Positions 66 through 44,569 of a DNA stretch of 44,569 nt are shown here, piece by piece (the first letter of the stretch is position 1; the number at the start of each line of letters is the position of its first letter). The notes beneath the pieces were generated by a model. That model saw nothing but the letters and a program-made list of their open reading frames with translations. It was not told the DNA's origin and made no database searches. The DNA comes from Escherichia phage SECphi4. Location of the stretch: sequence record MT331608. One strand, 5' to 3'. The translations under genes and the position numbers were made by a program.

Positions 66-438
66 CTTTGATCGTTTTACCGGGGGTAAGTGCGCCGCCT
101 GTTTTGACGGGCCAGCCTAAAAGGCTGTCGTATTGCGCTGCCGTTGTATCGATCTGAGTCTCGTCATGCACGGTCATGTAAGACTCGCCCAGCAGGGCGG
201 CATACGCCACCAGATCCACGATGTTATCTTCCTGGTGCTTACGGTGCTGGCGCACCAGCTTCAGGCAGATCAGGAAGGTCCAGGCTTCTTGCTCGGTAAG
301 GTCGCGCCCGGTAAGCGCGTTAAACACGGCAGCGATTTGTTTAGCGCTGCGTTCTTCTTTCGCGTTGTCATAGCCGTTTTCTTTCCCGCGCTGTTCCATA
401 GTGGTGGCGGCGTTTTTGCAGTATTCGTATGCTTTCAT
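1..438 (-). CDS. Hypothetical protein, 5' part (146 codons) of an ORF that continues across the window junction
   Basis: ATG at 436..438 with AAGGAA SD upstream; open to position 1 in a frame that continues exactly at 44504. Confidence 0.6.
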   Translation of the reverse strand, partial: MKAYEYCKNAATTMEQRGKENGYDNAKEERSAKQIAAVFNALTGRDLTEQEAWTFLICLKLVRQHRKHQEDNIVDLVAYAALLGESYMTVHDETQIDTTAAQYDSLLGWPVKTGGALTPGKTIKAANFGIADQDVQPMVVLTGEDG

Positions 439-479: not shown

Positions 480-509
480 ACTATAGTGCAACCAACCTAT
501 TGGTTGCAA
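480..509 (-). promoter_or_regulatory. Sigma70-like promoter (TTGCAA-N18-TATAGT) overlapping an inverted repeat TGCAACCAA/TTGGTTGCA
   Basis: -35 and -10 hexamers about 45 nt upstream of the ATG at 438; architecture recurs at 2384, 15227 and 25833. Confidence 0.45.
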
Positions 510-966
510 GTGAATTTTGCAACGTTTATTGCGTAAATTTTCGGAACCAGATCGCTGCACGCCCGACGAATTGCCGCGATGTTCTTCTCGCAATCTTCAA
601 TGATGACCAGTTCCGACACGTCCGCATAGCAGACCATTTTGAATACAGCGCACGCCTTAAACTCCGGCGGCGGGGTGTCGTCCAGCATGTGGCGCATAAA
701 CAACCGGCCTGTCGGGAATACTTCCAGTTGCTCGGCGGTAGTCTCCCAACATTCGCGCTGCAGGTTTGTCAGATACGCGATCTCGAAGCCTTGCTCTTTA
801 TACATGCTCAACAGCGGCAGCATATCCATGTTAAGGTCTTCGCGTACGTGCGATTTGTGCCACTTCGCCCAAAATGTTGATTTGGTTTTTATGCCGGGGA
901 CCAGTCGGCGCGCGCATCACTTGAACCATTAATAACACCATCCAGATCACAAATCAGTAGTTTCAT
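497..966 (-). pseudogene. HAD-superfamily 5'-nucleotidase-like gene split by a -1 frameshift (or sequencing indel)
   Basis: ATG at 964..966 encodes MKLLICDLDGVI (HAD motif I DxDG) and stops after 25 codons; the -1 frame is open from 916 to 497 and contains an LDD motif; frames overlap at a C4 run and GC repeat (892..916). Confidence 0.35.
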
Positions 967-2417: not shown

Positions 2418-2741
2418 TTACGCATAAAAATTCGGGTCGCGCGCGACGTCTACCAGGTAAAGGTTGCTCATGCGGTTGCCGTAGTGCCCTGGTGTGCGCT
2501 GGCGGCACACAACGGCGAAGCCTGGGGGGATTGTATTGCCAGTCTCAATAATCCACGCCACGCGCGCCCCCGATAGAGTTTTGCCGTTGCATTCGATACG
2601 TGTGCCACCATCGGCAGTATTGATGTTGCCAATTTTGCAGCCGGTGGACTTCAGACGAATGACGCCGGTTTTGCTGTCGTAGGAAAAAAGCTGATTGGTC
2701 ATTGCCACTGAAAAGTCGATGGCGTCGAATGCAGTATTCAT
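2418..2741 (-). CDS. HNH-like protein with apparently degenerate catalytic residues
   Basis: 107-aa ORF resembling phage HNH_3 layout but with conserved His positions replaced; GAGGAAAA SD. Confidence 0.35.
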   Translation of the reverse strand: MNTAFDAIDFSVAMTNQLFSYDSKTGVIRLKSTGCKIGNINTADGGTRIECNGKTLSGARVAWIIETGNTIPPGFAVVCRQRTPGHYGNRMSNLYLVDVARDPNFYA

Positions 2742-3433
2742 TTTAAATTTTCCTCGTTAACCGCTATCGCGAAGCCGCACGGGGTGAGCGACCTGATTAA
2801 TTTGGTGTGGGCAGATTTGCCTCCGAGGCGACTATACTGCTTCGAGTACCCTTTTTCAACGAAAACAGGTTTCTTCTCTGGCATACGGAAGCCGTTGCCG
2901 GTCCATAAGCAGGTCAGCTTCGGATATGAATCGCGGGCGTTGATGTATTCCGGGAATAGCGGGTGTACGTCATCCTCCGGCAGATATCCGCCATACTCCC
3001 ACGGGTCAAACGAGTGGTCCGGCTTACGCCATTGAGTGGAGAGCACGCTGCGCGGATTCTCAATCATATATGGCACTTCAAAGAAATCACCCAGGTAAGC
3101 GGCGATCTTAGCGGTGCGCACCGCCTTAAGCTGGAAGGCAGGGTCGCGGGCGCGTTTGCGCGGGAAAGCGGGCGCGCCACTCACCGCCAGATCCGTACAC
3201 GGCGGGAATGCGTATATGATATCCGGCGTGCCGAAATCACCATTCATCGCGCGGTCCACGAAGTCCAGACCGATAAACTCATTACGATATCGAATGCCAC
3301 GACCATAGATCCGGTAGTCCAGGTACGACCCGTGATCGGCTCCGGAGTAGTTGAAGCAATAACACTTATGCCCCATCTCGGCAGCACGTTCAATCATCAA
3401 GCCGCTGCCGTCAAATAATGACCAGATAATCAT
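2738..3433 (-). CDS. DNA cytosine-C5 methyltransferase-like protein
   Basis: FDGSG (motif I-like), FPPC (motif IV-like, catalytic Cys) and ENP (motif VI-like) in a 231-aa ORF. Confidence 0.65.
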   Translation of the reverse strand: MIIWSLFDGSGLMIERAAEMGHKCYCFNYSGADHGSYLDYRIYGRGIRYRNEFIGLDFVDRAMNGDFGTPDIIYAFPPCTDLAVSGAPAFPRKRARDPAFQLKAVRTAKIAAYLGDFFEVPYMIENPRSVLSTQWRKPDHSFDPWEYGGYLPEDDVHPLFPEYINARDSYPKLTCLWTGNGFRMPEKKPVFVEKGYSKQYSRLGGKSAHTKLIRSLTPCGFAIAVNEENLK

Positions 3434-5120: not shown

Positions 5121-5294
5121 TTATTTTTGCGCTGCGCGGTAGCGGCGCTGCCGTTCACGCTCTTTCTTATTGCGACACGATTTGCACTCGGCACGATACC
5201 CATCGGGGCTGCGCGCAGTTTTGCCGGTGTATTTGTGGAACTGGGATAGCGGCTTGACGCAACCGCAATTACTGCAACGTTTTTCTTCAATCAT
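5121..5294 (-). CDS. Small zinc-ribbon protein
   Basis: 57-aa ORF with CxxC...CxxC cysteine pairs; GAGGA SD. Confidence 0.45.
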   Translation of the reverse strand: MIEEKRCSNCGCVKPLSQFHKYTGKTARSPDGYRAECKSCRNKKERERQRRYRAAQK

Positions 5295-5334
5295 TTCTAA
5301 AATCCTCGGTATAGCTAACCTGCTCACTATACTG

Positions 5335-5613
5335 TTAAGCGACCAATTCAGCAACCAATAAATCACAGTCAGCTATGTTGTCAATGACGCGAACGTCCGC
5401 ACCGCGGCGGGCCATCCGCTCATGTTCTCGCACCTGGTGCGGCTTCGGTTTGCCTCCGGGGCGCTTCACTTCGACGAAAACTATTCTGCCGTTGATGATG
5501 ATAATCAGATCGGGCGCACCTGCGCGCCCCTCCCAGGCCACTTTGCGGCAGAATCCGCCGACGGCTTTCACCAGTTTCATAAGGTGACTTTGGATCTTGC
5601 CTTCTGGTGTCAT
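5335..5613 (-). CDS. VRR-NUC domain nuclease
   Basis: PDLIIIINGRIVFVEVK PD-(D/E)XK core typical of VRR-NUC; translationally coupled (ATGA overlap) to the upstream gene. Confidence 0.8.
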   Translation of the reverse strand: MTPEGKIQSHLMKLVKAVGGFCRKVAWEGRAGAPDLIIIINGRIVFVEVKRPGGKPKPHQVREHERMARRGADVRVIDNIADCDLLVAELVA

Positions 5614-5801
5614 TTAGTTTGCAATTCCACGTTACGCAGACGAAGGTCCACCGGTATATCCGATCGCCCGGTTAGCGCCAGCGCCAGGTTTTCAGGCGTG
5701 ACAAGTGCCGTAATGGTCTTGCCACGTTCCAGTCTAATGACGATTCGAATCTCGTCGTTTTCCGCCGCGCCAGCGCGCATAATGCTCATTTCTGCTTTCA
5801 T
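5610..5801 (-). CDS. Hypothetical protein
   Basis: 63-aa ORF with AGGAAG SD; located between the polymerase and VRR-NUC genes. Confidence 0.45.
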   Translation of the reverse strand: MKAEMSIMRAGAAENDEIRIVIRLERGKTITALVTPENLALALTGRSDIPVDLRLRNVELQTK

Positions 5802-5805
5802 AATC

Positions 5806-8097
5806 TTACTTCCTGTATCTGTACATAATGTCGCCTTCGGCGGCAAGGGGGAAGCCTTTCGCCCAAATAGGCAGGTCGCACATCAGCGCGCAAAGCTCCT
5901 CGGTCGTGTAGTCGTCGGTGTCCGGCACTTCTGTGATCAATTCATCATGCACCGATAGAACGATTTCATAGCCCGCAGCTTCAACGCCAGGCATGGACCA
6001 TGCGAGAATATCGCGGCACAACGCCTGTACGATGTTCTCCGTCAGTTTGCCGCCGTAGGTGTACTGGAACCCCCACTGGCGCGTCGTATGATTCTCGCCC
6101 TGATATTTAATGCGTGTGCTGGTGCGCTTCTTGCCGGTGTCCTCGTCAATCTCTGTCGTGACAGACAGCGCGATGCCGGGGTAGCTCATGATGCGCCCCG
6201 ACGGCAACTCAATTTTCAACCACCACCCAGCGGCGTTCGGGTCGTCGCGCTCCTCGTCAAAGGTTGGGTCGTGCTTCGCCTTCGTACGGACAATCTTGAG
6301 CGCTTTTCTACCGTCCGGGCGAACGTTCGCGCCAGCCCAGTATGCTTTACCCGGATTGCGGATTGCACACAACACCGCGTCCTCAAGCTCGGCCCAAAAG
6401 GCTACCGTCTTCGGGTGAGCCTCACGCCACATACGTTTGATTGCGTCACAAGTAAGCCATACGTTTTTCGGCAGTATGTATGTTGGGCGCTCGTCCTTCT
6501 TGCCCGGCTTCGGCGGGCGCTTCGCTTCGTTAATGCGAGCGTACTCATAACCACGTTTCGCCGCCGCCCAAATGTGATCGGGGAATGTGCCCTTCATCAC
6601 GTCTGCCATAGTGTAAAGGTCAAGGCCCAGGTTTTTAGCGAACTGCAAAAACGCGGCAACGCCGCCACCATAGCCCAGTCCCAATTCGCACGCCTTACCA
6701 ATCTGGCGTAAGTCCTTGCGGTTGGCTTTAATGTAATCCGGGTCAAGGCCGAACATCTTACCGGCAGTCTCGCAATAGATATCGCGACCGGCCTTAAAGA
6801 CCATTAACGCTGTTTTCTCGCCAGCGATCCAGGCAAGGCCGCGCCCTTCCACGTTGGAGTAGTCAGCTACGACAAACTTCTTGCCCTTTGCAGGGATGAT
6901 GCACCCGCGAACGGTAGAGGCGGTCAGCTTCGATATGTCATACGCCCAGTGCGCTGTCCCACGTAACAGGGAGTTGATGCCGTTGGTGAGCATGTGCGAC
7001 CTGACCCAAAAAGCGACGTCGCTCTCGCCTTCGCGGCGCTTAATCTTCCCTTCGTTGTCGTCGCTGTACTCGCCACGCGCTAGGTTTTGAGGTTGGAAGC
7101 CTTTACCGGCCCAGCGTAGCGTGCGCTTTGCCCCACCATACTGAAGACAACCCCGGCGGCGACCATCGGCAGACAAGCCATTGACGAGCGGATTGTATTT
7201 AGTCGATGCCGTTGATGACGCCCCGAGGCGCATTTCGATAAGCGCTTTGCCCTCGTCCGGGAAGTCTGGGTCTTCCAGTAGGTCGTTTAGCGTGGATTTC
7301 TGCGCGTTGTGTATTGTGAATGCTGGCGCAATATCACGCAGGATTGGCAGGAAGTCATTGCCGGTCAGCTTACCGCCAAATCGCTCCCAGGCTTCTTCCT
7401 TCAATTCTTCCTTATGCGCCTGCACCGCTCTGATCGCGGCGTTAGCCAGGTCAACGTCCACATAGAAGCCGCGGTCGTTAATCAACTGGTCTATAAGCAG
7501 GATTTCATCTTCCTTCGGAGTATTGCCCCAGTCCGGTATGCGCCAGTAGACTTCACGCATTGCGATAATATCCAGCGCGGCATAGCGCAGAAATTTGGCC
7601 CACTCTTCTGGGTGAGTCTCGCGAGTGTAGCGGCGGATTTTGTAGGTCTTAGGGGTAGGCTTACAGAACCGTTTGATCAGCGCCTTGCCCGCCTTATCCT
7701 TCGCATGCTCCGCGTCAACGCCCAGCACCTGGCATTGCATATCGAGGCTTCCGGGCAGCGCGTGGCGAAAGGCCATAATCATGGTATCTTCGATCTGGCA
7801 CACTGGCAGGTCAATGCCCCACTTCTCGCGAATGACCAGGCGGTCAAACAGAAGGCCGTTAGCCATCACGATTTTTGCTTTCTTGCGGGATACCTGGCGG
7901 AGCGCCTTGCGCAGTTCACGCGGCATTGTGGGGGATTCAGTGCAATCCCATGTCTGCACGCGGCCCTCGTCGATGGCGTAGGTGCAAATCATAATCTCGG
8001 TTGATGGGTGTTCTGCGTAGGCGTAAGCGCCGACTTTCTTCAGGTCCACATCGCTAAACGTCTCGGTGTCGAGAAACAGGCGTTCGAAGTATTTCAT
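5806..8097 (-). CDS. DNA polymerase I (family A) with N-terminal 3'-5' exonuclease domain
   Basis: 763 aa; Exo I motif FLDTET at the N-terminus; polymerase motif C LSVHDE near the C-terminus. Confidence 0.9.
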   Translation of the reverse strand: MKYFERLFLDTETFSDVDLKKVGAYAYAEHPSTEIMICTYAIDEGRVQTWDCTESPTMPRELRKALRQVSRKKAKIVMANGLLFDRLVIREKWGIDLPVCQIEDTMIMAFRHALPGSLDMQCQVLGVDAEHAKDKAGKALIKRFCKPTPKTYKIRRYTRETHPEEWAKFLRYAALDIIAMREVYWRIPDWGNTPKEDEILLIDQLINDRGFYVDVDLANAAIRAVQAHKEELKEEAWERFGGKLTGNDFLPILRDIAPAFTIHNAQKSTLNDLLEDPDFPDEGKALIEMRLGASSTASTKYNPLVNGLSADGRRRGCLQYGGAKRTLRWAGKGFQPQNLARGEYSDDNEGKIKRREGESDVAFWVRSHMLTNGINSLLRGTAHWAYDISKLTASTVRGCIIPAKGKKFVVADYSNVEGRGLAWIAGEKTALMVFKAGRDIYCETAGKMFGLDPDYIKANRKDLRQIGKACELGLGYGGGVAAFLQFAKNLGLDLYTMADVMKGTFPDHIWAAAKRGYEYARINEAKRPPKPGKKDERPTYILPKNVWLTCDAIKRMWREAHPKTVAFWAELEDAVLCAIRNPGKAYWAGANVRPDGRKALKIVRTKAKHDPTFDEERDDPNAAGWWLKIELPSGRIMSYPGIALSVTTEIDEDTGKKRTSTRIKYQGENHTTRQWGFQYTYGGKLTENIVQALCRDILAWSMPGVEAAGYEIVLSVHDELITEVPDTDDYTTEELCALMCDLPIWAKGFPLAAEGDIMYRYRK

Positions 8098-9138: not shown

Positions 9139-9381
9139 TCAAGCATTTTCATTAAAAAGATTTCTGGTAACGTAGTTGGTCGCGTTCTCGATCCAGCTTA
9201 ACGGCGGTCGGTCGATGTTCTTCTCCACCAAGCCGACGGCAGCGTCGTTATAGCCGTCATCCAGCCAGCGGGTCGGATGTCGAATCATCCAGGCCACCAT
9301 TAATACGCACTGCACACAATGCAGGATAAAGCCCAGCGCGCCGATAACAAACATCAATAAGATTGCGAACACTTTATTCAT
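9139..9381 (-). CDS. Small membrane protein
   Basis: 80-aa ORF with hydrophobic N-terminal helices; GAGGA SD. Confidence 0.5.
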   Translation of the reverse strand: MNKVFAILLMFVIGALGFILHCVQCVLMVAWMIRHPTRWLDDGYNDAAVGLVEKNIDRPPLSWIENATNYVTRNLFNENA

Positions 9382-10792
9382 TGCTTAAGTCCTCGTCAGT
9401 AGCTTCAGACCACGCAGGGCGCGGGTCGTCGATTGGTGCTAATGCCGGTTTAGCCGGTGCGCGCGTGATTTTATCACACAGCTTCGCCCATACTTTCGGT
9501 TTCTCGTCCTTCAGTACCTTCTCGGCATCCGTAGGACTGAGCAATGTTTCTTTGTACATCACATCGCGCTTGATCCGGGCCTTCGTGAAGATTTCAATCA
9601 CTTCGCTCTCGTCCGCCCACTTGCGATTCCCTTCCTTACCGGCAACCATCTTGAGGCCCAGCGATTCGCCATCGCCTGCCATTACGGCCTTGAATACAGC
9701 GGACTCGATAGCCTTGATGTGCTGGCGCATTGCGTCAAGACCTTCATATGCCTTGCGCAGTTCCGCGGAGGTCATAGCGCCTGGTGCCGCTTCTTTCTTG
9801 CCACGCTTCGCACGTCGTGCCGCTTTGCGGGCTTTGCGGTCGTGATTGGCGCATTCTTCCTCTGTCGCAATACTCACGTCGTCGCCCAGGTCTTCGTCTG
9901 TTGCCGTTGGTGGGGTCATCGTGTCGATTGCGGCCTTAGCGCGGGCGCTACACTGATCCGCAAATCTGCACCACTGACACGCATCAACGCTCGGTCGGAA
10001 GTCGGCACTGGTGAGTCCCTTTTTGCCGCGGGCGTACGCTTCCCGGGCGGCGATAGCACGCTTGGACGCAAACTTCGCGAATATCTCCAGGGCTTCTACC
10101 GAAATATCCCACTCCGACGCCCCGCCGCAATACGGCTGGAAGATAACCAGGCGCACGGTCGTAATGTCGTACATGGTTTTCAGCTTGCGCAGCAGGCCCA
10201 GCGCATACAACATAAGCTGTTTGTTTTCTTTCGCCTCGACCTTATGCCGCCCCGTCTTCAGGTCGCCAACAATCAGCATGTACGTGCCGTCGGTCTTCTT
10301 CATGACCATGACCATATCTGCAGTTCCGAACGTCTTAACCCGGTTGCCGTCGATCTCGAAGCCAGAGTGTAGGACGCGGGTGAGATCGGCGCGCATCTCA
10401 AGCTGAACAAACTCCGCCACTTCGAGGAGCGGTCGCCAGTGGTCGATGTACGCGTCGCACTGTTTCACCATATCGTCATTGACCAGTACGCCGCCTTTCG
10501 GTGCTTTCGGGTGTGCCTTTACCGGCCCCTTACCTTCGTTCTCGACGTAGCACCCTTTGTACGTCTTCGCGGTTATCAGCTTCTCCCCGGCAATGATGCG
10601 GTTGAGCACGACTTCAGATACGGTGTGCATACTAGTACCGTTAATCGCCGCTTGCCCGGATTCGTTCGGGATACCTTGTTCTACCACCAGGGCGGCAGGG
10701 CAACCCATCCATTTTTTAGCACCGGATGGGCCGAGTAATGAATGCTCCGTGTTGCTACCGGATTGCGTTTTACGTTTTGGTTTAATCGCCAT
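9374..10792 (-). CDS. DUF2800-type PD-(D/E)XK (Cas4-like) nuclease
   Basis: N-terminal HSLLGPSGAKKWMGCP signature; 472 aa; adjacent to DUF2815 SSB and the polymerase. Confidence 0.7.
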   Translation of the reverse strand: MAIKPKRKTQSGSNTEHSLLGPSGAKKWMGCPAALVVEQGIPNESGQAAINGTSMHTVSEVVLNRIIAGEKLITAKTYKGCYVENEGKGPVKAHPKAPKGGVLVNDDMVKQCDAYIDHWRPLLEVAEFVQLEMRADLTRVLHSGFEIDGNRVKTFGTADMVMVMKKTDGTYMLIVGDLKTGRHKVEAKENKQLMLYALGLLRKLKTMYDITTVRLVIFQPYCGGASEWDISVEALEIFAKFASKRAIAAREAYARGKKGLTSADFRPSVDACQWCRFADQCSARAKAAIDTMTPPTATDEDLGDDVSIATEEECANHDRKARKAARRAKRGKKEAAPGAMTSAELRKAYEGLDAMRQHIKAIESAVFKAVMAGDGESLGLKMVAGKEGNRKWADESEVIEIFTKARIKRDVMYKETLLSPTDAEKVLKDEKPKVWAKLCDKITRAPAKPALAPIDDPRPAWSEATDEDLSNE

Positions 10793-41916: not shown

Positions 41917-41945
41917 AGTATCGCACTGCTTAACCATTAATGCAA
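41917..41945 (-). promoter_or_regulatory. Candidate promoter (TTGCAT-N17-GATACT) with an ATTGGTTGCA copy
   Basis: Motif at 41941..41950 on the complementary strand, upstream of the lipoprotein gene. Confidence 0.35.
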
Positions 41946-41966
41946 CCAATTTATGAGGATTTAGCA

Positions 41967-43784
41967 ATGGCGGCGGGAACATTATCCGTAACGAATAACA
42001 GCAAGACAGTTGTAGGGGTTGGCACGACGTTCACCGCGTTTAAAGCTGGCGACTTCTTAACTCTGGTGGTGGGGCAAGTGCCTTACACTGTTGCGATCGC
42101 GTCCGTAGAAAGCGACACCGCGCTTACGCTGGTGCTGCCGTTCGACGGCCCAACGGCAGCAGGCCTTGCGTGGGATGGCGTTAAGCGCGATACCATGTCG
42201 CTGGCAACGATGGGCGTAACAGTACAGGCACAGAAAGCGTTGCGCTTGATGCTCGCGGACGAAAACAACTGGCGTGCGATATTCGGAGACGAAGAAGAAA
42301 TCACGGTAACGCTGCCGAACGGGCAAGTAATGCAGGGTATGTCGTGGGGCTATCTGTCGCAATTGATGAAGGAAATAGACCCCGTTGAGATGCGCAACCT
42401 GCAACAAAAAACCCGCGAGTCTGAGTTAGCCACGTGGCATTATCGGCAGGAGGTCGAAGGCTTTAAGAACGACACCAATTCCATCAAGGACCAGACAAAC
42501 CAGATTAAGGAGGATACGCAGGCTATCCACGACGCCACCAATGCCATCAAGGACCAGACAAACCAGATTAAGGCTGACACCGGCGTTATTCGCGACGAGG
42601 CCAATGCCGCGAATGCTGAAGCGCAAGCCGCCAGCACTGCCGCGCAGGGATTTCGCGATCAGGCCGAAGAATTGGTGCAAAGCATAAACCCCGACAATCT
42701 GCTAACCAAATCCGGCAACCTGGCGGGCCTGGCTGACCGCGCCGCTTCATGGCTTAATATTCGCCCGATTGGACCTACTCCGCTCGCTGGCGATCCTGTT
42801 GACGATTATGACGCCACCACGAAGCGTTGGGTGCAGAATACGCTAAACTCTGGCGTAATCGGACAAAGCTGGGGTGTTAAGAACGTAAATGTTAGCACCC
42901 CAGAGCCAGGCGTTAACGTCAGTGGCGGAATGTTGGTGTCTGAATACTCCAACCCGGAACGCAGTCTTTTTGCTCGCCTATACTCGAACACTGTATGGGG
43001 TTATCCTGGAGCGGCTATTATTGAGGCGGAAGGTAGTAACAAGCACACATACCAGTTTTTTGAAGACGGCACTGTTGATTTCAGGAAATCCGGTAATTCA
43101 AACCGAGTCAGCATGCACACATCCACCTCAAGTTGGTATAACGTCACAACGGCGTCACGCACCGACTTGACATCAGGTGGGGTTGACAGAATTCTGGAAG
43201 CAGAGGCGTCGGATATTTTAGTACTGGGGTACACTATTGGTGCGTCACGTCCTGACGGCTACCCAACAAAAGTAGGCTTTCATCAATATATTTGGCCTAC
43301 GGAATCATACAACTTCGCTTCAGCGGTAATCTCAATTGGTGCGGACAATGGTTGGTGTAAATTCCTTTTTGGTGTGGACGGGGTGATCTGGGGGTCTACA
43401 GATCAAGGTGATTTTTCCTACACCCGTAACGGTGTGTCCGACTCGCGTGTTAAGCACGGCATAGAGCCAACAACCGTTGATAAGGCGTGGAGTAACTTGA
43501 CATCCCTACAGTTTGTAACGTTTGTTTATAATAACGATGAGCAGGAGCGCCAGCGACGTGGCATTATCGCGCAGCAAGCAGAGACTGTAGATAAGCTATA
43601 TGTAAAAACAAGGGTTTATCCTGGTAAAAATACAGGGGACTCTATGGTTGAACAGAAGGAACTGGATACTATGCCATTGCTTCTTGACACCATGCATGTT
43701 GTGCAAACGCTGATGCTGAAGATCGAGGCGATGGAAGCAGAGATTGCCACCCTTAGAGAAGAAGTGGCGGAGTTGAAGAAATAA
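41967..43784 (+). CDS. Side tail fibre with coiled-coil repeats and probable C-terminal intramolecular chaperone domain
   Basis: 605 aa; tandem 21-aa repeats (T-N-x-I-K-D-Q-T-N-Q-I-K); C-terminal SDSRVK...GIIAQ motifs resemble the S74-type chaperone domain. Confidence 0.7.
   Translation: MAAGTLSVTNNSKTVVGVGTTFTAFKAGDFLTLVVGQVPYTVAIASVESDTALTLVLPFDGPTAAGLAWDGVKRDTMSLATMGVTVQAQKALRLMLADENNWRAIFGDEEEITVTLPNGQVMQGMSWGYLSQLMKEIDPVEMRNLQQKTRESELATWHYRQEVEGFKNDTNSIKDQTNQIKEDTQAIHDATNAIKDQTNQIKADTGVIRDEANAANAEAQAASTAAQGFRDQAEELVQSINPDNLLTKSGNLAGLADRAASWLNIRPIGPTPLAGDPVDDYDATTKRWVQNTLNSGVIGQSWGVKNVNVSTPEPGVNVSGGMLVSEYSNPERSLFARLYSNTVWGYPGAAIIEAEGSNKHTYQFFEDGTVDFRKSGNSNRVSMHTSTSSWYNVTTASRTDLTSGGVDRILEAEASDILVLGYTIGASRPDGYPTKVGFHQYIWPTESYNFASAVISIGADNGWCKFLFGVDGVIWGSTDQGDFSYTRNGVSDSRVKHGIEPTTVDKAWSNLTSLQFVTFVYNNDEQERQRRGIIAQQAETVDKLYVKTRVYPGKNTGDSMVEQKELDTMPLLLDTMHVVQTLMLKIEAMEAEIATLREEVAELKK
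42471..42590. repeat. Tandem 63-bp repeat inside the fibre gene
   Basis: Repeated aat(t/g)ccatcaaggaccagacaaaccagattaagg at about 42477 and 42540. Confidence 0.8.
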
Positions 43785-43787
43785 ACT

Positions 43788-43816
43788 AAAAAGGGGCCAT
43801 GCGGCCCTTTTTTTTT
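43788..43816. terminator. Bidirectional rho-independent terminator where the two arms converge
   Basis: Stem GGGCC/GGCCC with ATGC loop flanked by A5 and T9. Confidence 0.7.
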
Positions 43817-44390
43817 AGTTTGAGTTTTCCCAATCCATTTTGCGCCTCACCAGCGGGCTTTCGAAGTATTCCTTACCTTCCACTTCCACTAAAGGCCAAT
43901 CGTTCACGATCACGTATGGCTCTGCTATATCCTCAATCACACCGTGCGCGCTATGCTGCCCAAACGACACACCAACCAGAATAACACCGGCAACTCGACG
44001 GGAAAGATACTCGCGAGCGCAACGGGCCTCAACCAGCCCGCGACGGATGCCGCTGGTAGCTTTGACCTCATAGGTCCAGACGGCATCAATCATGTGTTCC
44101 CGGAAGTCTGGGCCGGATTTAACCTTGCGCTTACCGACCATGATAATATCGCCGCGGTCGATAGTGTTAGCGCTAAACAGGCCGGTACGCATTAGCAAAC
44201 CTTGCGGAATACAGCTACGCCCGCCCGCCTGCCCTTCGAGGTACATGCCCGCAAACATCTCACCCAGCACACCGACCAGACGGCTTTGCTTGCAAGCGTC
44301 GGACTTGTATCGCCACTGGTCAAACTCGATGCTCGCGATCATCGCCGCCAGGTGGAATTGTTTACCAGATATTTCATATTCGCCGTACAT
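43815..44390 (-). CDS. Hypothetical protein with PD-(D/E)XK-like motif
   Basis: 191 aa; GPDF...IDAVWTYEVK resembles a restriction-endonuclease-fold core; last gene of the minus-strand arm. Confidence 0.5.
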   Translation of the reverse strand: MYGEYEISGKQFHLAAMIASIEFDQWRYKSDACKQSRLVGVLGEMFAGMYLEGQAGGRSCIPQGLLMRTGLFSANTIDRGDIIMVGKRKVKSGPDFREHMIDAVWTYEVKATSGIRRGLVEARCAREYLSRRVAGVILVGVSFGQHSAHGVIEDIAEPYVIVNDWPLVEVEGKEYFESPLVRRKMDWENSN

Positions 44391-44432
44391 TGTGTGGCCC
44401 CTATTGATGCGGGCCGAAGCCCGCGATTAGAA

Positions 44433-44569
44433 TTATTTAAGTGCGCCAGTCACCAGTGTTTTTTCCATGTTACGGAAATCTTCCTGCGTCATGAGGATTT
44501 TAGACCCGTCCTCGCCAGTGAGCACGACCATAGGCTGGACGTCCTGATCTGCGATGCCAAAATTAGCGG
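44433..44569 (-). CDS. 3' part of the junction-spanning ORF (about 169 aa in total); unknown function
   Basis: Frame continuous with 1..438 through the duplicated 65 bp; stop TAA at 44433..44435. Confidence 0.6.
   Translation of the reverse strand, partial: ANFGIADQDVQPMVVLTGEDGSKILMTQEDFRNMEKTLVTGALK
44505..44569. repeat. Second copy of the 65-bp terminal duplication
   Basis: Exact match to 1..65. Confidence 0.95.

Follow-up and report, generated by a model that had tools for sequence, protein, structure and literature searches.

What does the last gene of the leftward arm of Escherichia phage SECphi4 encode, and does its product act alone or together with the protein of the gene beside it? 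The window considered here is the whole stretch of 44,569 nucleotides of sequence record MT331608, and the element in question is an open reading frame (ORF) near its end:

43815..44390, minus strand: coding sequence of a 191-amino-acid (aa) protein with a predicted PD-(D/E)XK fold; ATG start; hypothetical protein; PHROG 10558

A preliminary description of this DNA had noticed in the 191-aa protein a GPDF...IDAVWTYEVK core resembling the restriction-endonuclease fold, and had suggested that the gene forms a two-gene accessory module of nuclease and partner with a co-oriented ORF that spans the junction of the sequence ends. The picture that has emerged is a different one. The 191-aa protein, called the nuclease below for brevity, is probably a stand-alone PD-(D/E)XK enzyme of a small phage-restricted family, that is, a DNA-acting endonuclease without an obligate partner.

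The reading frame is present with the sequence originally quoted for it and contains KSGPDFREHMIDAVWTYEVKATSG; its ATG is preceded, at a distance of 7 nt, by AGGGG, which resembles a Shine-Dalgarno sequence. SECphi4 is a Dhillonvirus, and the DNA of the region has 88-92% identity to about 150 Dhillonvirus genomes, including those of PaulFeyerabend/Bas15, YD-2008.s and Sodalis phage SO-1. Between SECphi4 and PaulFeyerabend the gene shows 66 synonymous and 8 non-synonymous differences, with a ratio of non-synonymous to synonymous substitution rates (dN/dS) of 0.02. It is a real gene under strong purifying selection.

A predicted restriction-endonuclease fold with an invariant signature

The structure of the protein was modelled with AlphaFold2 (AF2) on a 16-sequence alignment of the family that reaches down to 23% identity. 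The model has a predicted local distance difference test score (pLDDT) of 91.8 and a predicted template modelling score (pTM) of 0.87, with all five models scoring at least 89.9, and it supersedes an earlier model from a 5-sequence alignment (pLDDT 75) in which residues 69-101 were unreliable. The N-terminal part consists of a strand (4-8), two helices (10-26 and 34-54) and a further strand (59-61); the middle is a long hairpin of strands 82-92 and 97-112 (beta2-beta3) followed by helix 122-130; and the C-terminal part comprises strands 135-143 and 147-156 and then a small beta-hairpin and helix (167-190). The predicted alpha-beta-beta-beta-alpha-beta core is that of the PD-(D/E)XK superfamily (Pfam clan CL0236), and both the model and the structural matches agree with the earlier suggestion that the 191-aa protein has the restriction-endonuclease fold. 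It differs from the superfamily in an extra N-terminal strand and helix (4-26, with the invariant E22), in the C-terminal hairpin and helix, and in a beta2-beta3 hairpin that varies in length. The best structural match is I-Ssp6803I (PDB 2OST), a PD-(D/E)XK homing endonuclease with 9% identity, and the structural neighbours include the Type II or modification-dependent restriction endonucleases NhoI, DpnI, MspI, HinP1I and ThaI and the N-domain of Eco15I. Unlike these restriction endonucleases, the nuclease is not encoded next to a methyltransferase and is without a separate DNA-recognition domain.

Twelve positions are invariant in the 16-sequence alignment, namely E22, R37, G40, E44, G64, R68, D81, E108, K110, Y128, I161 and W165, and E44 is also invariant in a set of 19 sequences. 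The codons of the putative active site are:

44259..44261, minus strand: Glu44, invariant, in 'GVLGEM' on helix 34-54; candidate helix glutamate of the active site
44148..44150, minus strand: Asp81 (gat), invariant, in 'RGD' directly before strand beta2; likely the 'D' of PD-(D/E)XK
44061..44069, minus strand: Glu108-Val109-Lys110 (gag-gtc-aaa), in 'YEVK', the putative (D/E)XK element on beta3; E108 and K110 invariant

Since strands 82-92 and 97-112 run antiparallel in the model, residue 81 is predicted to lie opposite residue 108, the canonical placement of the PD aspartate and the (D/E)XK acid. E44, in a 'GxLGE' motif on the helix preceding beta1, is likely the helix glutamate of the active site, so that the Asp before beta2, the Glu-x-Lys on beta3 and the Glu on the preceding helix are all features that the protein has in common with the superfamily. 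The spacing from D to E ranges from 13 to 27 residues across the family, and all of the length variation falls at the hairpin tip. The core that first drew attention to the gene holds in one part only: 'YEVK' is borne out, whereas the aspartate of 'GPDF' (D95, in loop 93-96 at the tip of the beta2-beta3 hairpin) varies as D/D/Q/Y/Y/N/G/H or is deleted in homologues, and that of 'IDAV' (D102) varies as D/L/K/R/N. The conserved aspartate is D81.

No curated family accommodates the protein. Pfam returned no family for the 191-aa query and only scattered matches at E > 0.01 for other family members, NCBIfam returned no match, and searches of the PDB by phmmer and by profile hmmsearch gave chance matches only. 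PADLOC gave a sole match, to TmtA at E = 0.034, in one of the 16 family members, which was not reproduced in the other 15. Two further proteins of the superfamily are encoded in the same leftward operon of the phage:

5335-5613, minus strand: VRR-NUC protein (Pfam)
9374-10792, minus strand: DUF2800/PDDEXK_1 protein (Pfam)

Neither has detectable profile similarity to the nuclease, as had been noted from the sequence at the outset: the hhalign probability is 0.35% for VRR-NUC and 0.58% for DUF2800, neither of them significant, and the 191-aa protein has no Pfam match to VRR-NUC (PF08774) or to DUF2800/PDDEXK_1. It is a third independent PD-(D/E)XK lineage in the SECphi4 genome. An hhalign comparison of a family alignment with the Hjc proteins of Pfu and Afu (PF01870; comparison sequence checked against 1GEF) gave a probability of 0.1% and E = 0.62. 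When this statistically insignificant alignment is forced, D81, E108 and K110 align with D33, E46 and K48 of Hjc. A structure search of BFVD yielded uncharacterised phage proteins only, together with a match to T4-type endonuclease IV that is not significant (E = 0.11), and literature searches found no paper on the gene or on PHROG 10558. The 191-aa family has no annotation in curated databases. The family is nonetheless conserved and its residues are placed as in PD-(D/E)XK enzymes, even if none of the alignments to individual families reaches significance.

A core gene of a small family

The protein matches PHROG 10558 from end to end (E = 7e-119), for which PHROG lists the function as unknown. 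By tblastn, 157 phage records have a nuclease match of at least 60% identity, and 157 have a match of at least 90% to the major capsid protein; the equality of the two counts makes the nuclease a core gene of Dhillonvirus. In 144 phage records its amino-acid identity is 95-99%, whereas the DNA of 43700-44569 is mostly 80-95% identical. This protein conservation equals that of the capsid protein and leaves the label 'accessory' in the preliminary description doubtful. About 43 further records have homologues at about 30% identity and belong mainly to Klebsiella and Enterobacter phages of 47-49 kb. A distant capsid homologue occurs in a similar-sized, mostly Klebsiella group of records, which makes vertical descent of the nuclease family inside a single siphovirus clade probable.

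The family is tiny. A HMMER profile found 14 representatives, at the 50% identity level, among 1.84 billion proteins; a word-indexed search gave 6 clusters and a broader profile 11 matches. No match from these deep searches, whether of the 1.84 billion representatives or by word index, bears a name or a Pfam domain, and every family member whose context was readable resides on a siphovirus-like phage contig. One of the 14 profile matches, P0017 (4001 aa), was rejected as a member: it is a repetitive adhesin-like protein and is gone with the broader profile. Fragments of the gene are seen as well. Enterobacteria phage mEp021 (MH706966.1), a lambdoid phage, has an unannotated 84%-identical piece at 54408-54518 that covers only the last 37 residues of the nuclease, and P0011 (68 aa) matches only its positions 149-191; exchange of tail-fibre modules may have brought both along as remnants. 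Two records stand out by their host names. MG065648.1 (Campylobacter phage A144) encodes the nuclease with 98% amino-acid identity, and OQ221563.1 (Acinetobacter phage NJ01) encodes the DUF6378 protein, the product of the neighbouring gene, with 81.5%; these records are probably coliphage contaminants or host mislabels.

Genomic context of the nuclease

In Dhillonvirus-like phages the nuclease is the last gene of a leftward arm for replication and DNA modification. The leftward operon of SECphi4 encodes a DUF2800 exonuclease, SSB, a DNA polymerase, VRR-NUC, a helicase, Dcm-like and Dam methyltransferases, a HAD phosphatase and a DUF6378 protein before the nuclease, and it ends at a terminator that abuts the nuclease stop codon and is common to the convergent tail-fibre gene (41940-43784, plus strand). 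The window begins and ends with the same sequence, positions 1-65 being identical to 44505-44569. This 65-bp terminal redundancy is the overlap of a circularly closed assembly and not a biological terminal repeat, so ORFs across the junction are to be read with one copy removed. The elements around the nuclease are:

43788..43813, both strands: bidirectional intrinsic terminator from a terminator scan; 11-bp stem, T-run on the plus strand
44409..44424, minus strand: GC-rich hairpin GCGGGC-UUCG-GCCCGC (mRNA strand) in the 42-nt spacer between the DUF6378 and nuclease genes
44433..44569, minus strand: 3' part of the DUF6378 gene (169 aa), of which 44505-44569 duplicates 1-65
66..438, minus strand: 5' part of the DUF6378 gene; start ATG at 438-436, preceded by AAGGA
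about 497-966, minus strand: HAD-like phosphatase gene, next upstream of the DUF6378 gene

The placement of the locus between the terminator of the fibre gene and the HAD-like gene, as originally described, is thereby confirmed. The HAD-like gene of SECphi4 is apparently frameshifted near 900-905, with the first 21 codons, MKLLICDLDGVINGSSDARAD, which contain the DxDG motif, in one frame and the other 135 codons in another. The PaulFeyerabend counterpart is one intact 156-aa ORF, and the frameshift in SECphi4 is either a pseudogene or a sequencing error. Further along the arm, a 231-aa protein (2738-3433, minus strand) has an 'FPPC' motif and is labelled a Dcm-like C5-cytosine methyltransferase in the annotations of BASEL relatives; its Pfam search gave no match at E <= 0.01, and it appears to be a divergent methyltransferase.

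The hairpin between the DUF6378 and nuclease genes has a folding energy of about -14 kcal/mol. Its stem is unchanged in PaulFeyerabend and at the related loci L004 and L005, despite a nuclease identity of just 56% there, and AUUUU follows it in L004. The hairpin could function in attenuation, as a site of processing or in stabilising the mRNA.

The gene order in relatives was compared next to that of SECphi4, with distant loci referred to by their L numbers:

PaulFeyerabend, first part of the arm: DUF2800 nuclease, SSB, DNA polymerase, four small hypothetical ORFs, helicase
PaulFeyerabend, second part of the arm: Dcm-like methyltransferase, HNH, Dam, phosphatase, DUF6378, nuclease
Klebsiella phages: before the nuclease, primase, Dcm, Dam and small genes; after it, holin
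L013 and L016: before the nuclease, primase, Dam and small genes; after it, lysis genes
L008: before the nuclease, N6_N4 methyltransferase, HAD, DUF6378 and helix-turn-helix (HTH) genes; after it, a convergent tail gene
L009: before the nuclease, helicase, MT-A70 and HAD; after it, holin
L011: before the nuclease, helicase, primase, RusA and one small gene; after it, further genes on the same strand

One of the four small hypothetical ORFs of PaulFeyerabend is probably the VRR-NUC orthologue. In all inspected Dhillonvirus-like loci the nuclease is flanked by the DUF6378 gene and the fibre gene, and in the distant relatives it lies in, or at the end of, an equivalent gene block. A methyltransferase is encoded upstream in the same block in most lineages with enough flank and is never adjacent to the nuclease; in SECphi4, three genes and the frameshifted HAD-like gene separate the nuclease from the Dam gene. 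An overlap of a few bases between a small Xre-type HTH gene and the nuclease homologue is seen in two distant lineages only, with the HTH gene downstream in L007 (3713-3913) and upstream in L008 (4789-5001), a layout that resembles the controller proteins of restriction-modification systems.

Is the DUF6378 protein a partner?

With the redundancy removed, the junction-spanning ORF exists as had been described: it runs from 438 to 66 and then from 44569 to 44433 on the minus strand, encodes 169 aa and is co-oriented with the nuclease gene, 42 nt upstream of it. Its product matches Pfam DUF6378 (E = 9e-10) and PHROG 9871 (E = 3e-105); GenBank often mislabels DUF6378 proteins as 'phosphofructokinase'.

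The two-gene module would have the nuclease work with, or be controlled by, the DUF6378 protein, as in a toxin and its antidote or a nuclease and its specificity subunit. In its favour, the same orientation and 42-nt spacing are seen in SECphi4 and all close Dhillonvirus relatives, the pairing persists in relatives at 56% identity (L004-L006), and in L008 the DUF6378 gene is still found two genes upstream of the nuclease. Immediate adjacency is nevertheless a feature of Dhillonvirus-like loci only. The co-oriented flank of the nuclease is without a DUF6378 gene in five other lineages (L002, L003, L007, L009/L010 and L011), and L013 and L016 have theirs past the lysis genes, on the other strand and about 1.7 kb away. 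Conversely, DUF6378 matches occur in 324 phage records, some of which, including Vibrio, Xanthomonas and Stenotrophomonas phages, fall outside the 200 nuclease-matching records. Only the N-terminal DUF6378 domain, about 90 residues, is kept among relatives: the proteins range from 144 to 223 aa, and the C-terminal halves are unrelated among L004 (gene 5287-5958), L005 (5465-5962), L008 (4355-4789) and SECphi4. The neighbour also evolves faster, with 73-94% identity within the genus vs 95-99% for the nuclease, and the conserved hairpin lies between the two genes. Because of this patchy adjacency, the occurrence of DUF6378 without the nuclease, the variable C-terminal half and the lower conservation, the module put forward in the preliminary description is not supported and must be considered very unlikely. 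Judged by gene order and conservation, the DUF6378 protein appears to be a syntenic neighbour rather than an obligate or dedicated partner.

What the nuclease may do

The most plausible account of the 191-aa protein is that of an enzyme working by itself, with the DUF6378 protein only as a neighbour. D81 and E108, possibly together with E44, would bind Mg2+, K110 would position the attacking water, and the phosphodiester bonds of a nucleic acid, most probably DNA, would be hydrolysed. Because the nuclease is the last gene of the leftward replication and DNA-modification operon, it is probably made together with the replication proteins and would act on DNA during replication. The best guess for its target is non-phage or otherwise unwanted DNA, which it might cut in the breakdown of host or competitor DNA or in a restriction-like manner. 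Such a restriction-like or host-DNA-degrading role would fit the methyltransferase-rich operon, the restriction and homing endonucleases among the structural neighbours, and the overlapping Xre-type HTH genes of L007 and L008.

A more specific version of this idea casts the nuclease as the cutting component of an 'offensive' restriction function that the phage carries in dispersed form. Expressed from one operon with Dam- and Dcm-like methyltransferases (elsewhere N4/N6 or MT-A70 enzymes), it would cut DNA that lacks the methylation pattern of the phage, so that the host chromosome, plasmids and co-infecting phages would be targets and the phage genome would be spared. If true, this would explain both the capsid-level conservation and the overlap with Xre-type HTH genes in two distant lineages; we nevertheless consider it unlikely.

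Several points weigh against the account of a DNA-cutting, restriction-like enzyme. Searches of Pfam, NCBIfam, the PDB and PADLOC, and the comparison with Hjc, linked the protein to no characterised family at a significant level, by sequence or by profile. The nuclease activity of family members is deduced from the fold and the signature, and the clustering of E44, D81, E108 and K110 from predicted secondary structure and the hairpin register. The link to methyltransferases may be mere inherited synteny in one phage clade, because the distant Klebsiella-phage carriers also share the capsid homologue. Moreover, Dam and Dcm are also present in E. coli, and their marks would not be an obvious means of telling host DNA from phage DNA. 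Finally, several RNA nucleases (influenza PA-N, DXO/Rai1 and a tRNA-splicing endonuclease) figure among the top structural neighbours, and an RNA substrate is therefore possible.

These RNA nucleases suggest an enzyme directed at RNA, for example one processing host or phage mRNA or tRNA. The resemblance is at the level of the fold only, at 6-13% identity, and the genomic neighbourhood is one of DNA replication and DNA methylation. To our knowledge, tRNA-splicing endonucleases do not use a D...(D/E)XK metal site, in contrast to the invariant metal-site residues found here, and an RNA-directed role is highly doubtful. A better case can be made for a structure-specific endonuclease, akin to Hjc or T7 endonuclease I, that would resolve branches in replicated phage DNA before packaging, since in size and fold the protein resembles Hjc, and its gene belongs to the core. 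Yet the profile comparison with archaeal Hjc (PDB 1GEF, 2WCW) is non-significant, and the nuclease coexists with VRR-NUC in SECphi4 and in L016 and with RusA, encoded two genes upstream of it, in L011; because such resolvases are already at hand, junction resolution becomes less likely, and this role can be regarded as rather unlikely.

Many PD-(D/E)XK-fold proteins are non-catalytic, and the 191-aa protein could in principle be an inert member that binds DNA or protein, as a regulator or as a decoy against host defence. Inactivated members seldom retain the signature, whereas here E44, D81, E108 and K110 are all invariant down to 23% identity, so that an inert protein is improbable. The resemblance to I-Ssp6803I raises the further thought of a mobile homing endonuclease. 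That enzyme is intron-borne and mobile, whereas the nuclease is a free-standing ORF, outside any gene, intron or intein, at one fixed locus in every capsid-carrying Dhillonvirus record, under strong purifying selection and with very little sequence identity to the homing enzyme. With a location so fixed and universal, the homing reading retains next to no probability and was rejected. The stand-alone endonuclease acting on DNA thus remains the reading that we favour.

Known Dhillonvirus proteins with roles in defence were also considered as possible identities. Phage SM_A8 lacks the anti-Tmn protein ORF35 (PMC11846954) yet carries the 191-aa gene, so the two are not the same. Ksap1 is described as a small protein found only in Dhillonvirus (PMC11564622), and this identity was likewise rejected, as the 191-aa family has homologues outside that genus. 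The 191-aa protein is not among the SECphi4/6/18 escaper loci in the table of Stokar-Avihail et al. (10.1101/2022.08.27.505566).

Perspectives

Overall, the 191-aa family is one more small and previously unannotated family of the large and well-understood PD-(D/E)XK superfamily, and the evidence points to no new mechanism. Its interest lies rather in the phages that carry it. Dhillonviruses such as SECphi4/6/18 and the BASEL phages Bas14-18 are much used in phage-defence research, and most of their genes are labelled 'hypothetical'. The fold assignment, together with D81, E108 and K110 as targets for mutagenesis, offers a direct experimental handle on a universally conserved gene of the group. 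It could also help to interpret defence systems that respond to DNA damage or to phage nucleases; Retron-Eco7, for instance, is triggered by a protein of a Dhillonvirus, 'phage98' (PMC12640716).

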